IMG/VR virus record: IMGVR_UViG_2541047426_000030
Strand: one strand, 5' to 3'
Origin: a virus
Lineage: Duplodnaviria; Heunggongvirae; Uroviricota; Caudoviricetes
DNA: 64,000 nucleotides
A program made the position numbers. Positions 42,001 through 48,000 of this stretch are shown in pieces. Numbering within the stretch: the stretch's first letter is position 1; each line of letters opens with the position of its first letter.

Positions 42001-45000
42001 CACGGGCGGAAGAAGAATGGGAGAGGAAATTCTCCCCCTGTCCTTTCTGATTTTCAGGACCAATAAAAATGTTCGATATCGTTGAATTTGTTAAACAGCA
42101 GGAGCGCTTTTTCTGCGAAGCATTAACTGAACCGACGCTGACATGGGCTAAGGAAAGTCAGTTTGCAATTCAGCAATTCCAGAAAAATTCCTTTCTGGCT
42201 GACACAGCACGGGGAAATCTGTCCAGCGCACAGAACGCTATCATCAATGTTGCCGCCATAGGCATAACCCTGAACCCGGCCAGCAAGCTGGCGTATCTGG
42301 TACCACGAAAAAAGGCTGTATGCCTGGATATCAGTTATATGGGGCTTCTGCATCTGGCACAGGTCACAGGAGCCATTCAGTGGGGGCAATGCAAACTTGT
42401 TTACGAGAAGGACATTTACGAGTCCAACGGTATTGACTGCGCCCCCACGCACAAATACAACCCATTCGTCGACAGGGGCGCACGCATTGGCGGTTATTGT
42501 GTCGTAAAAACATCCGAAGGCGACTATCTGACCGAAGAGATGAGCAACAGGGAAATCGAGGTCATCAGGGCGTGCAGCAAAGCCGGAAATAACGGAGGAA
42601 GTAGCCCGTGGGATAGTTTCCCCGATGAAATGGCCAGAAAAGCCATTGTTAAGCGCGCCAGCAAATACTGGCCCCGTCGCGATCGCCTGGATACAGCTAT
42701 CGACTACCTGAACACTCAGGGCGGTGAAGGTATCATCCTGAATGCTGATCACATCCCTGAGCGTGACGTCACTCCCGCATCAGATGAGATTATCAATGAG
42801 ATCACTCAGGCAATCACCGAAATTAACAAGACATGGGATGACCTGCTTCCCTTATGTTCCAAAACATTCCGTCGCACGATTGCATCACATGAATATCTCA
42901 GTCAGGAAGAAGCTGTCAAAACGCTTGATTTTGTCAAAAAGAAAGCTGCCAGAAACAAGGCCACGGCGGAAGCGAAAATTCACGCCACCACGGAAAATAA
43001 CAGCGAGGCCGTGTCATGACACCAGAAATTATTCTCCAGCGAACTGGCGTGGATATTACCAGCCTCGACCAGGGCGATGATGGATGGCACAAGCTGAGAC
43101 TCGGTGTTATCACTGCTTCAGAAGTTCACAATGTGATAGCAAAGCCACGTTCCGGCAGCAAATGGCCTGATACAAAAATGTCATACTTCCACACCCTGCT
43201 GGCTGAAGTTTGTACTGGCGTGGCACCGGAAGTTAACGCTAAGTCGCTCGCATGGGGAAAGCAATACGAAGATGATGCCCGTGCCCTCTTCGAGTTTATC
43301 GCGGATGTTACCGTCTCGGAAACGCCAATAATTTTTCGTGACGAAAGCATGCGCACCGCCTGCTCTCCCGACGGTTTATGCAGCGACGGTAACGGCCTTG
43401 AGCTTAAATGCCCCTTCACTTCCCGCGACTTCATGAAGTTCCGGCTTGGCGGCTTTGACGCTATCAAGCCTGCTTACATGGCCCAGGTGCAATTCAGCAT
43501 GTGGGTTACAGACAAGGACGCCTGGTACTTCGCCAACTACGATCCACGCATGAAGCGTGAAGGCCTGCATTATGTCGTGGTCGAACGGGATGAGAAGTAC
43601 ATGACGAGTTTTGATGAGATGGTGCCGGAGTTCATCGACAAAATGGACGAAGCACTGGCGGAAATTGGTTTTGTATTTGGAGAACAATGGGGGGTTAATA
43701 ACTAATGGATGAAGTGATTTTTACTTATAACGAAGAATCAGCACTGACCGCCGGACAAGGTGGTTTTATTACCGAAACGGGTGCGCATATCATTAACATC
43801 ACCGAAGCAGAACTCAAGCAATCAGAAAAAGGTGCCCGATTCATTGAGTTTTCTGGAGAATCCGACGACGGACGGAAAATCCAATATCTCAGTGTTTGTG
43901 TTCAGAAGAATGACGGCACTGAAAATAAATTTGGGGCGAGCATTATTCACGCCATGATGGGATGCACAGGAATTGGGCAGTTAACGCAGCATATGGTTTC
44001 CGTCAGTAAATATGTTGCACCTGAGTTTCACGGAAAGAAAATCGGACTCGTCCTCCAGAAAGTATTAACCACAAACAGAAAGACTGGCGCAGACGGTTAC
44101 CAGATGGAAATCCGCATTCCATTCATTGCAGAAACAGGGCAGACACTGAAAGAAAAAGCTGAAGGAAAGAAACCAGAAACTGTAGCAAATATGGTTTCCA
44201 CTCTCAAAGACAAAGACAATCGCAGCAAAAACGTAAACCCGAATCACACGGACGCCCCAGGTTACTGGCAGTACGGCAGCGATAGTTTTTAATTCACAAA
44301 CAAAACCAGGCTTTAAATGCAGTAAACAACCGAAGCCTCAATACACTCTCTACACGGAGATATAAATATGAGTCAGCATCAGACAGATGTTAATATTTTC
44401 ATTAACGACCTCGACGGCGGGGTATTTGTTAACAAACTTGGCGCGGTATTAAGTGAAGTTGCCTTTGGCGTAAACAGCACAAACAAAAAAGGAAAGGTAT
44501 GTGTTGAATTCGAATTATCTTCACTTGATGAAAATCGCGTATCAGTTTCCCATAAACTAAAATTCACACGCCCGACAATGCGTGGTAGTAAATCAGAAGA
44601 AGACACAACTAACACCCCGATGTTTGTAAATAAAGGTGGTGAGCTTACTTTGTTCCAGAAAGACCAGGGACAGCTTTTCGATAAACAGGGTCAACATGAC
44701 GCTGTTTTACGCTGAATAATCCCCGCCTTAAAACGCTCGCGCATTATCCCCAAATCCATAAATTAAAGGTAAATATACATGTCTCAGTTAGATAGCAATG
44801 CCATTAAAGAAATTGTAAAACTCACCACTACTGCTTTTTCTGGTGAAAATTTGCCGCTTACGGAATGCCCTGTTGCGTTATTGCCGGACAATGTAAATAT
44901 CGAAAGTCTGGAACGATTCATGACAGAACGTTTTCGTTTCCGTGGAGTCATGACCACAACCAGTATTGATGACTTTGTTGAATACAGCAAAGGGTATGCC

Positions 45001-48000
45001 GATGAGCACTCCCGCTGCTTCATTAACGCGGAAACGATGAAAGCAGTCACTGTGTTCAATATCGGCACTCTGGAGCAACCTGGACACGCTGACAACAAGG
45101 CACTGCTGGAACTGAAAGCCACATCACCATATCGCGCATTGCGTGACGTTGACGGCAAAAAACAACTCCAGAAGTCTCTCGCTGAATGGCTGGAAGACTG
45201 GGCCGACTTCCTCACAGCCTATGACAGCGACGGTAATGTGCTGGATATCAAACAGGCTATCTCTGCTGTCCGTCGTCTTACCATCGATGCAAAACGCAGT
45301 GCTGAATATGAAGAGCAAAACTTCAGCGGTAGCCGCTCAGTCATGGAGTCCGTGGAGGCTAAAAGCAAAGAAATCATGCCTGCCACTTTCCGCTTTGAAT
45401 GCATCCCATACGAGGGCCTGGGCAACAGGGAATTCACGCTGCGATTAAGCATTCTGACAAGCGAACAGCCTGTTCTGGTGCTACGTATCGTGCGTGTTGA
45501 AGCTGCGGAAGAAGAAATTGCCAAAGAGTTCCGTGACCTGCTGAAAGAGCGTTTCGAAGAAGAAGATATCTTAACCTTCATCGGCACGTTCTCAGTGTGA
45601 TGAAATCTGTGACAGGGACGTCACGACATATCGCTCATATTTCACGAGAAAATACACAGTTCTTGGAGGGTATACTATGCAATTTAAAGATTTACCAGAG
45701 GATATTCAGAAAATAGCTGCGGATACGCTTAAAGCCCATTTATCGGTGCTTGATTTAACAAAGGAACCAAAGGCGAATCTGGAAAATATATCCCGTAACG
45801 TGCGAGATGTTTTTGTCGGGCTGTATGCTTATGACAATGAAAAGCACGAGGAACATATTCAAAATGGTTGCATTAATAAATGTCAACAAAATATCAAACT
45901 TCCTGTTGCTGATAAAACAGAGCAGAAAACAGATGTATTAGTATTCTGGAATACCGTTGAGGCTATCGCCAGGAGCACGATGTTGGAGTTTAACAACATC
46001 AATCATTCCGGGATCGACACTCATCAATCATCACATCGTGAGGGGTTTTCCATTCTTCTAACTCTGTTACAAGAGCAAGGCGAATATCCTCAGCCGACAT
46101 CAAACGATACTGAGCAATAGTCTATTCTCGTACGCTGCAACGTGAGGTCGTACCCCGGACACGGGTAAACATCCGGCAATTCCAGCTTACCACCTATTTA
46201 ACCCCCTCCCCGTAACGAGACGAAGAAATGAGCACTCATCATGTTGTGAGTTTTTCAGGCGGTCGGACATCGGCGTACCTCGTCCACCTTATGGAGCAAC
46301 GCAGAAAAGCTGGTGAAAACGTTCATTACATACTCATGGATACGGGATGTGAACACCCGCTGACGTACCGGTTTATTCGGGAGGTTGTGAAGTTCTGGGA
46401 TATTCCGCTAACCGTGTTGCAGGTCGATATAAATCCAGAGCTTGGGCAGCCAAATGGTTATACGGAATGGGAACCAAAGGATATTCAGACGCGAATGCCG
46501 GTGCTTAAACCGTTTATGGACATGGTAAAAAAATATGGCACGCCATACATCGGCGGCGCGTTCTGCACTGACAGATTAAAACTCACCCCCTTCATAAAAT
46601 ACTGCGATGACCATTTCGGACAAGGGAACTACATCACGTGGCTGGGTATTCGTGCAGACGAACCCCGTAGGCTGAAACCGAAACCGGGCGTCCGGTATCT
46701 TGCCGAACTGTCAGATTTTGATAAGTCGGATGTTATCCGGTGGTGGCGAAAACAACCTTTTGATTTGCAAATCCCGGAGCACCTCGGGAACTGTGTTTTC
46801 TGCATCAAAAAGTCAACGCAAAAGCTGGGGCTTGCATGTAAAGACGAACCTGGTCTGATGCGGGTTTTTAATGAACTGGTTACAGGCAAACACGTCAGGG
46901 ATGGTCATCGCAGAACAGGTAAAGACGTTATGTACCGTGGTCACCTGACGCTTGACGGGATTGCCAGGATGTATGCCGACAGCGACTACAGCAATTTGTA
47001 TCAAGCGATGGTGCTGGCCAAGCGGTTTGATACTGGTTCGTGTTCCGAATCATGTGAAATCTGGGGTGACCAATTGGAGTTGAAATTCGAAGAGGTAGTG
47101 GCATGACAATCGTAAAAACCCATACCGGCATTGTGATCACCAAAGACGGCCCGCAGGTAAAAAAACTTCACCAGACAGAGCGGATGTGGGTCGTCGGCAA
47201 AAACGAGTTTTACCACAAAGAAACCGGACGCCGCCACTTTGCAGAAAATACGCGCCGCAGACTGCTGATCGACACAATCAAGCCTGTCGAGGTGAAGCAT
47301 GTTTAAACAGAACGAAAAATCTATCGCTCAAATTGCTGAGTATATCCCGCGTACGTGCCGGGGTATGCAGTTGCAGGAAGCCAAAGCGCGCCTGGAGAAA
47401 AAAATTGCGCTCTATATCGATGACGGCTGTGATGCTGCCGTTCCTAACGCGGCTTTCGCACCAGCTCTTAACTGTCATACGCGGGAATCTTTTTTTTCGT
47501 GCATCGCAGCGCAGCTCCACAAAGGAGGCAACCAGTGAGCAAGATTGACTATCAGGAACTGCGTGAAAAGGCAGAGAAAGCAACTAAAGGAAGCTACATC
47601 GTAGGGCATACATCTGTTAACCAACACGGCAATTTAACAGGAGTTTTTGTTTGCCAAAAATGGAAAGGAGAACCCGGTGGCGTGATTGCAGAATGTCATG
47701 TTAACTGCCTGGTTGAAACAGATGCTCAGGCTTACGCAAACGCTGAATTTATTGCTGCCTTTAATCCAAATGTTGCGCTGGCACTGCTGGATGAACGGGA
47801 AAGAAACCAGCAATACATCAAACGCCGCGACCAGGAGAACGAGGATATTGCGCTAACGGTAGGGAAGCTGCGCGTTGAGCTTGAAGCAGCAAAATCAAAA
47901 CTCAACGAGCAGCGTGAGTATTACGAGGGCGTTATCTCGGATGGAAGTAAGCACATAGCAGAACTGGAAAAACAATGCGCCGAATGGGAGCGAAAAGCAT

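Follow-up and report, generated by a model that had tools for sequence, protein, structure and literature searches.

Do the seven small genes that follow recT and exo in the early operon of a Shiga-toxin prophage act as one system, or have they come together as separate parts? The locus lies in a virus record of the class Caudoviricetes (IMG/VR IMGVR_UViG_2541047426_000030), and by the window we mean the whole 64,000-nucleotide stretch that was analysed. An earlier note on this DNA, made from the sequence alone, had proposed the run of plus-strand open reading frames (ORFs) at 43705-47538 as a candidate for an uncharacterised DNA-modification or counter-defence function. We find that the region is an ordinary juxtaposition of known phage modules that shuffle independently, not one system. 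Taken as a whole, it is best explained as a mosaic of a single-stranded DNA-binding protein (SSB), the YfdP-YfdQ pair, an ORF of 147 amino acids (aa), and a homologue of lambda NinC followed by a cassette of two small ORFs. We put the probability of this reading, with the roles proposed below for its parts, at roughly 60%. The observation in the note is confirmed; its interpretation finds partial support, as a hypothesis for NinC alone.

All seven plus-strand ORFs were found where the note had placed them and at the lengths it gave (Table 1). They lie directly downstream of a recT-exo pair, identified by PF03837 for RecT and PF09588 for the YqaJ/lambda-Exo nuclease, and their tight packing was also borne out, with intergenic gaps of 63-107 nt and otherwise overlaps. 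All of them hit PHROG families, with E-values no higher than 4e-42, and so represent genuine conserved genes rather than chance reading frames. The note regarded all seven as being of unknown function, which does not hold for the 195-aa gene, an HkaK-type SSB of the recombination (Rec) module; a housekeeping assignment was reached for this gene, one of the seven. Only the SSB has a close homologue that has been characterised; the other six ORFs fall into named but uncharacterised families. Public records already contain this exact sequence with its genes, and yfdP/yfdQ of phage ArgO145 have been discussed in print.

The distribution of these genes across viral loci argues for separate modules. 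In a survey of 80 viral contigs carrying a DUF2303 (YfdQ) gene at 55-100% identity, a YfdP homologue adjoins that gene, immediately upstream, in 79 loci, whereas SSB, RecT and Exo are present in 10, the 147-aa ORF in nine and NinC in seven. Every locus with SSB, RecT, Exo, the 147-aa ORF or NinC belongs to a close relative of the window phage. Since NinC, the SSB, the 147-aa ORF and the two small ORFs accompany YfdP-YfdQ in close relatives only, the region is treated as a mosaic, in which YfdP and YfdQ are the only constant partners. Together with a second survey, of 79 NinC loci, these counts reject a single co-inherited cluster; what stands of the proposed DNA-modification cluster is the idea of DNA modification itself, which we carry forward by inference for NinC.

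The opposite view, that the seven genes make up one coherent, uncharacterised DNA-modification or counter-defence cluster around the PAPS-reductase-like enzyme, draws on their tight packing in an early operon, on the recurrence of the order YfdP-YfdQ-(YfdR or 147-aa ORF)-NinC in many E. coli prophages, and on the partial similarity of NinC to SspD, DndC and BrxP. Against this stand, besides the survey counts, the identity of the first gene as a Rec-module SSB, the nin region as the usual home of NinC, and the occurrence of YfdPQ without NinC in CPS-53-like prophages and in phages CP2 and JC1. NinC is, moreover, the one protein of the seven that matches any defence model in PADLOC, and its matches are partial. 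We consider a single cluster very unlikely.

The module boundary is clearest at the upstream end. The 195-aa protein is 86% identical over 189 aa to HkaK of phage HK620, and its gene abuts exo, with its start codon at the exo stop. The PGAP label for the protein is DUF669, and near homologues adjoin Sak4, RecT or Exo in other phages. Hutinet et al. 2018 (PMC5928155) describe HkaK as a cognate SSB that stimulates Sak4 annealing, and a 2025 survey of lambdoid Rec modules names the HkaK type ‘SSB-2’ and lists ArgO145 as carrying all four functions (PMC12315714). A sequence search against the PDB returned matches to eS28, an OB-fold protein, only, none of them significant. Judged by homology, the 195-aa SSB completes the Rec module as its fourth component, alongside the Gam-like protein, RecT and Exo; it is a housekeeping gene, with predicted binding to single-stranded DNA.

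The next two genes form a unit of their own. The note's description of a YfdQ-like protein proved right: the 273-aa protein scores 221.5 bits against PF10065 (gathering score 26.6) and is 52% identical over 273 aa to E. coli K-12 YfdQ, and the 115-aa protein is 58% identical to K-12 YfdP; in K-12 both belong to the cryptic prophage CPS-53. Among the CPS-53-like majority of the surveyed loci, the pair is placed after the cI side of that operon, the early-left one, and the next gene encodes an HD-domain, YfdR-like protein in 59 of the 80. The DUF2303 gene of Xanthomonas phage CP2 has immediately before it a gene for a homologue of YfdP (35% identity, E = 1e-18) and is followed by a DUF1351-like gene and then by an Erf-exonuclease-HNH-SSB module. 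YfdP-YfdQ is therefore a strictly paired two-gene unit, observed from E. coli prophages to CP2. In Burkholderia phage JC1, genes for RecT, YqaJ and a DUF2303 protein lie within six genes, and the DUF2303 protein has been reported as virion-associated (PMC9144972).

A solved structure adds to the picture of YfdQ. PDB entry 9o7m, ‘YfdQ Protein’, contains a full-length homologue of the 273-aa protein (E = 4e-44), 94-99% identical to proteins of CP2-like Xanthomonas phages. With 36 identical chains in the entry, we infer that this homologue assembles into a large homo-oligomer. Labelling of the protein chains begins at C, so chains A and B are something else. Close PDB matches were found neither for the CP2 major capsid protein nor for its YfdP homologue and DUF1351-like neighbour, and for that reason the entry probably does not come from a virion reconstruction; we found no paper describing it. 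The 115-aa YfdP homologue of the window has no sequence relative in the PDB. In the YfdQ homologue, the conserved run around residues 171-195 contains E178, D181, S183, S187, M189, S191, E193, A194 and K197 as invariant or near-invariant positions, and it coincides with the only long segment that AlphaFold models at a predicted local distance difference test (pLDDT) score below 50. On the strength of this model, the segment may be one for partner binding or oligomerisation.

Two roles can be considered for the pair. The one experimental lead is that multicopy yfdQ together with yfdR and yfdS or yfdT blocks DnaA-dependent initiation at oriC, with YfdR as the protein that binds DnaA (Noguchi & Katayama 2016, PMC4776307). 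Because of this initiation block, our best guess for YfdPQ, held with low confidence, is an early role in host takeover or DNA replication. Alternatively, YfdP and YfdQ could act in recombination or in the handling of DNA ends, as so far unrecognised functional members of the adjoining Rec module. YfdPQ does lie beside Rec modules of three types in three unrelated phage groups (those of the window phage, JC1 and CP2), a 36-chain homo-oligomer as in 9o7m would fit with many annealases, and yfdQ mutants are slightly sensitive to methyl methanesulfonate and H2O2 (PMC4776307). Yet YfdPQ is widespread among lambdoid phages lacking a Rec module and is also found beside a complete four-function module, and its proteins do not resemble known annealases, nucleases or Gam in fold. 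Its occurrence both with and without Rec modules led the authors of the 2025 survey (PMC12315714) to judge a recombination role unlikely, and we too think it rather improbable.

The 292-aa protein, the PAPS-reductase-like enzyme of the earlier note, is a NinC homologue. It shares 229 of 288 residues (80%) with lambda NinC (NP_040635), with no gaps. The PP-loop-like motif reported for it is present as SFSGGRTSAY at residues 8-17, and the cysteine cluster is real and more specific than described, comprising C113, C189, C192, C272 and C276. Conservation was examined in 116 homologues with identities of 27-55%, taken from some 3,150 representative clusters. All five cysteines are conserved in at least 97% of these, and the SGGxxS loop, C113, the N-C-x-x-C motif at 188-192 and the C-x3-C motif at 272-276 are kept both family-wide and in the window protein; K118, R142, D144, E145, R148 and K195 are conserved as well. 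The AlphaFold2 model of NinC has a pLDDT of 87, with low confidence for the tail beyond residue 270 that holds C272 and C276, which suggests a flexible C-terminal Cys-pair tail. The internal conserved cysteines are a probable iron-sulfur (Fe-S) site.

The RefSeq annotation of PA2 (NC_028449) gives the identical gene as 816 nt with a start at 46291, which corresponds to Met22 of the ORF and deletes the invariant PP-loop (residues 8-15). Alignment with lambda NinC and with the whole family places the correct start at 46228.

The location of ninC in the window also fits a mosaic. In ordinary lambdoid prophages ninC follows ninB, or ninB and an HNH gene, among ninE, ninF, ninG, rusA and Q. The nin region of the window phage has only ninG and ninH and no second ninC; ninC has been relocated from there to the early-left operon. 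A third group of E. coli prophages (contigs L094 and L098) has NinC at 94-95% identity with a 230-242-aa protein upstream (5269-5997 and 5305-5997, respectively), not YfdPQ, and so offers yet another setting for the same NinC allele. That protein has no Pfam match, and nearby genes encode a DUF968 protein, a PNKP-like HAD phosphatase and a NinI-like phosphatase.

Is NinC then a PAPS reductase? Read at face value, its annotation would make it an auxiliary metabolic enzyme that boosts host sulfate assimilation. The PF01507 (PAPS_reduct) match exceeds the gathering score (2.9e-8; 34.4 against 22.5 bits), the PHROG class is ‘moron, auxiliary metabolic gene’, and a Foldseek search of the PDB returned PAPS and APS reductases first, CysH structures at the top, followed by LarE, TtuA, NcsA and MnmA, at template-modelling (TM) scores of 0.3-0.5. 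The Pfam match, however, is limited to the first ~70 residues of NinC (profile positions 2-66 of 175), and the NCBIfam CysH models fall far below their cut-offs (NF002537, 22.6 against 154 bits; TIGR00434, 16.1 against 165). TM-scores to CysH and APS reductase are just 0.38-0.51. In HMMER alignments NinC keeps a canonical ATP-type PP-loop, SFSGGRTS, that is lost in CysH, which reads SFGIQA. The C-terminal catalytic motif of CysH is ECGLH; NinC ends in GSCSESCEIW, with GSCSESCE in place of that motif. Fusions to DNA methyltransferases and a setting among replication and recombination genes also speak against sulfate assimilation. Model scores, PP-loop, C-terminus and fold scores together reject NinC as a CysH, and we give a metabolic role hardly any credence. 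The likeness to PAPS reductase that the note had seen is real for the N-terminal 70 residues and does not make the protein an assimilatory PAPS reductase.

Several lines of evidence point instead to DNA. The best model for NinC in the PADLOC defence library is SspD (2.4e-14), aligned over NinC residues 4-148 and profile positions 1-121 of 277; DndC follows at 6e-4 and BrxP is also weak. Some NinC homologues are fused to N6-adenine DNA methyltransferases, in the arrangements Dam(PF05869)-NinC, NinC-Dam(PF05869) and NinC-D12(PF02086). Two methyltransferase families in both orders indicate independent fusion events. Such fusions were found in six of the eight longest NinC representatives, in five of the 120 top clusters and in one CPS-53-like viral locus. 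A distant NinC subfamily from environmental viral contigs has no methyltransferase fusions; its neighbours include DNA polymerase A (eight loci), DUF5906 (five), the DnaA C-terminal domain (three) and NinG (two), with single instances of ERF, SSB, PDDEXK nucleases and helicases and four DNA methyltransferases. NinC is always found among DNA replication or recombination modules. A NinC homologue from Moritella (P0069) adjoins a 548-aa protein (contig L168, 8563-10209) with DUF4942 and a weak Dam (PF05869) match, which may be another methyltransferase-type neighbour.

From the PP-loop, the invariant cysteines, the SspD similarity, the methyltransferase fusions and the replication and recombination context, the most economical reading is a plausible one in which NinC carries out an ATP-dependent, cysteine- and Fe-S-mediated modification of DNA or of a nucleotide. 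In this proposal NinC would spend ATP on adenylating an oxygen of DNA or of a nucleotide and would then exchange the adenylated oxygen for sulfur or another nucleophile, delivered through the conserved cysteines, the probable Fe-S site and the flexible C-terminal Cys-x3-Cys tail. The principle would be the one on which DndC/SspD and tRNA thiolases work. NinC would act alongside N6-adenine methyltransferases, either host Dam or the phage MT-A70 enzyme encoded in the window.

The same chemistry raises the question of RNA as the substrate. NinC might be a phage PP-loop enzyme of the tRNA thiolase or lysidine type that tunes translation or evades tRNA-targeting defences: its structural neighbours include the tRNA enzymes TtuA, NcsA, MnmA and TilS-like proteins, with the same Cys/Fe-S logic, and the window phage carries three tRNA genes. 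But the recurrent fusions are to two families of DNA methyltransferases, ninC lies consistently in DNA replication and recombination modules and not near tRNA genes, and a Pfam search detected no THUMP, PUA or other RNA-binding domain in NinC. An RNA substrate is accordingly doubtful. The boldest form of the DNA-modification proposal, in which NinC is a stand-alone enzyme that installs a new ATP-dependent, Fe-S/Cys-mediated modification in phage DNA together with GATC-type N6-adenine methyltransferases (host Dam, or phage MT-A70/Dam), is a long shot in our estimation. Its product could possibly be a phosphorothioate-like change or a thio or amino change to a base.

The remaining three ORFs are variable parts. 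The 147-aa ORF is matched by six PHROGs, five of which reach only its first ~55-80 residues, and has no Pfam match (including none to an HD domain) and no NCBIfam or PADLOC match. Its homologues form 19 protein clusters, all from E. coli, and many share only the N-terminal half. It sits in the slot that the HD-domain gene yfdR holds in CPS-53-like prophages, and it is a lineage-restricted mosaic ORF, limited to E. coli prophages, that replaces yfdR. The 67- and 79-aa ORFs overlap NinC, one another and the Ea22-like gene, an arrangement that fits translational coupling. In 38 of the 79 NinC loci they come after NinC; in the other NinC loci inspected, an Ea22-like gene comes directly after NinC, and a homologue of the 67-aa ORF occurs without NinC in six CPS-53-like loci. 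Neither small ORF has a domain match. The two are a facultative cassette. No homologue of the 67-, 79-, 115- or 147-aa ORFs was found in the exo-xis or nin regions of lambda.

A number of observations weigh against the mosaic and the roles proposed within it. The first concerns linkage. In 55-61 of the 79 NinC loci, a diverged YfdP/YfdQ (52-59% identity) precedes a 93%-identical NinC, in the order yfdP-yfdQ-yfdR-ninC and with overlapping stop and start codons. Near-identical NinC genes of E. coli prophages are thus found downstream of either of two YfdPQ lineages that have diverged from each other (100% and about 52% identity). This recurrence is the chief argument against a mosaic, since it could be a sign that YfdPQ and NinC are functionally linked. 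It is, however, confined to E. coli prophages that are close relatives of one another; elsewhere the modules occur apart.

The second concerns NinC. Methyltransferases make up four of the 143 immediate neighbours of the distant subfamily, which rejects them as habitual NinC neighbours; the methyltransferase link consequently rests on fusions and not on neighbourhood. The similarity to SspD covers the N-terminal half of NinC only, and against TIGR03183 (DndC) NinC scores 15.5 bits for a cut-off of 290.4. An ATPase and a DNA-recognition partner are core activities of phosphorothioation systems (PMC12707154). Searches with Pfam, PHROG, NCBIfam and PADLOC on the seven ORFs and the Ea22-like gene, and with Pfam and/or PHROG on RecT, Exo and ten further ORFs between 48454 and 56339, revealed no DndD/SspC-type ATPase, DndE/SspB-type DNA-recognition protein or cysteine desulfurase in the operon. 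With no partner genes and a partial model match, membership of NinC in a Dnd or Ssp system is rejected, and the likeness is kept as a mechanistic analogy. Lambda, in addition, has NinC without a phage methyltransferase, and lambda ninC is dispensable (PMC10695390); in the searchable literature we found annotation and dispensability for NinC and no functional study.

The third concerns YfdPQ. yfdP is dispensable for the multicopy phenotype, for which its authors allow an over-expression artefact (PMC4776307), and the HD-domain yfdR is missing from the window, where the unrelated 147-aa ORF fills its slot.

The wider setting identifies the element. The prophage in the window is a Stx2a-converting, short-tailed lambdoid phage in inverted orientation, and the 3.8-kb region is the exo-to-ea22 segment in the early-left operon of an ArgO145/PA2-type Stx2a prophage at argW. 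Its position between a lambda-type exo and the Ea22-like gene, whose product is 84% identical over 74 aa to lambda Ea22, corresponds to the ‘exo-xis’ part of that operon, which has been tied to effects on host replication and on the lysis-lysogeny decision (PMC10834534). Inside the region we saw no strong plus-strand terminator and no excess of promoters. The DNA is 100% identical to that of PA2, ArgO145, VT2phi_272, phi346 and many ‘Stx2a-converting phage’ records; 188 phage records match the region and 44 of these cover at least 80% of it. Among 5,426 complete E. coli genomes, at least 80% of the region is present in 68 and parts of it in 1,001. In the O157:H7 genomes NZ_CP040572, NZ_CP038339 and NZ_AP026108, whose prophages are otherwise identical, IS1203 (IS3-like) splits the region, so that the match falls in two pieces over ~5.1 kb as against 3.8 kb.

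Table 1. Features of the window, in order of position; the seven ORFs under study run from the SSB gene to the 79-aa ORF.
Feature	Position	Strand	Support or remark
319-aa ORF	29372-30331	-	
Three phage tRNA genes	30422-30673	-	Arg-TCT, Arg-TCG, Met-CAT
cI-like repressor	36436-37149	+	
Type II restriction-modification pair	37244-39663	+	methyltransferase 489 aa (PADLOC MTase_II 5e-248); endonuclease 317 aa (REase_II 1.6e-168)
isrK Hfq-binding RNA	40283-40358	+	Rfam, 58.7 bits
C4 antisense RNA	40383-40470	+	Rfam, 77.1 bits
Regulator/antirepressor-like gene, 215 aa	40525-41172		
gam-like gene	41769-42050		Rec module member
RecT-family annealase	42069-43019	+	PF03837 1.5e-24
Lambda-Exo/YqaJ exonuclease	43016-43705	+	PF09588 3.8e-28; 87% identical to lambda Exo
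HkaK-type SSB (SSB-2/DUF669-like), 195 aa	43705-44292	+	phrog_743 ‘single strand DNA binding protein’ 1e-68
YfdP homologue, 115 aa	44368-44715	+	phrog_204 3.9e-44; upstream partner of YfdQ
YfdQ/DUF2303 protein, 273 aa	44779-45600	+	PF10065 1.6e-65
147-aa mosaic ORF	45677-46120	+	phrog_1363 2.3e-65
NinC homologue, 292 aa, PP-loop ATP-pyrophosphatase fold	46228-47106	+	80% identical to lambda NinC
67-aa ORF	47103-47306	+	phrog_1226 2.9e-42
79-aa ORF	47299-47538	+	phrog_1344 8e-53
Ea22/Ead-like protein	47499-48482	+	PF13935 4.9e-40; marks conserved distal exo-xis part
ORF6N-domain gene	52478-53155		
MT-A70-family DNA adenine methyltransferase, 208 aa, intact	53639-54265	+	PF05063 1.3e-22
Integrase	55095-56339	-	
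tRNA-Arg(CCU), argW attachment	56460-56534		

Among the neighbouring genes, the MT-A70 methyltransferase lies in the same operon as NinC, 6.5 kb downstream; in the PA2 record its counterpart is broken by an IS3-family element. A DUF551 (YfdS-like) gene is found 4 kb beyond YfdPQ. Towards the repressor side, a complete type II restriction-modification pair stands directly downstream of the cI-like repressor gene and on the same strand. It occupies the position of lambda's rexAB, and we therefore take it to be a prophage-encoded defence that is probably expressed in the lysogen. The isrK and C4 RNAs lie just upstream of the regulator/antirepressor-like gene; the three together make up an antirepressor module under antisense control, like immI of P1/P7, with which the early-left genes begin. 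The ORF6N-domain gene is a second gene related to the regulator/antirepressor-like one, with 71% identity over 114 aa. The three tRNA genes are just upstream, in the order of transcription, of the 319-aa ORF, a layout typical of the stx2 locus.

As a sequence feature the region adds nothing new, and its value lies in sharpening the questions about NinC and YfdP-YfdQ. NinC is carried by lambda itself and by thousands of prophages. If it does modify DNA, it would be a single-gene counterpart of the multi-protein Dnd and Ssp machineries, and lambdoid phages would be protected against restriction or modification-sensing defences. Given the strict pairing across enterobacterial and Xanthomonas phages, work on YfdQ should take in YfdP. 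Both NinC and YfdPQ are carried by Shiga-toxin phages, in which early-operon genes affect induction and toxin release.

Comparison with known systems sets out what is shared and what differs for each module. The nearest relative of the SSB, HkaK of HK620, is likewise 195 aa long and lies directly beside the annealase or exonuclease of its Rec module; HkaK is partnered with Sak4 and Abc2, whereas the window SSB stands with RecT and a lambda-type Exo, and the extreme C-terminal residues of the two proteins differ. The YfdP-YfdQ(-YfdR-YfdS-YfdT) genes of CPS-53 have the same order, spacing and place in the early-left operon as the window pair. In the window, however, the DnaA-binding, HD-domain YfdR of CPS-53 is replaced by the 147-aa ORF, and the replication-inhibition phenotype of CPS-53 required YfdR. 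In the phage type from which the 9o7m protein comes, a YfdP homologue also precedes YfdQ; it differs in its distant host clade and in its neighbours, an Erf-type Rec module and a DUF1351-like protein.

For NinC, the closest counterpart is lambda NinC itself, which is of the same length and has the same PP-loop and the same five cysteines. Lambda ninC follows ninB in the early-right nin region; the window ninC lies in the stretch from exo to ea22, with two unrelated small ORFs separating it from ea22. CysH (PDB 6vpu, 1sur and 2goy) has the solved fold closest to that of NinC: the two align over the N-terminal beta-alpha-beta nucleotide-binding core, and both proteins have a nucleotide loop, an internal cysteine and a cysteine in a flexible C-terminal tail, in that order, but CysH belongs to sulfur assimilation and NinC to a context of DNA metabolism. 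SspD, DndC and BrxP, sulfur transferases of PAPS-reductase-like type from DNA phosphorothioation systems, resemble NinC in the PP-loop N-terminal half, NinC being Cys-rich, with a probable Fe-S site, and plausibly directed at DNA. The Dnd and Ssp systems in which such proteins work include an ATPase and a DNA-recognition or nicking partner, whereas NinC stands alone, without these and without a desulfurase or a restriction partner.

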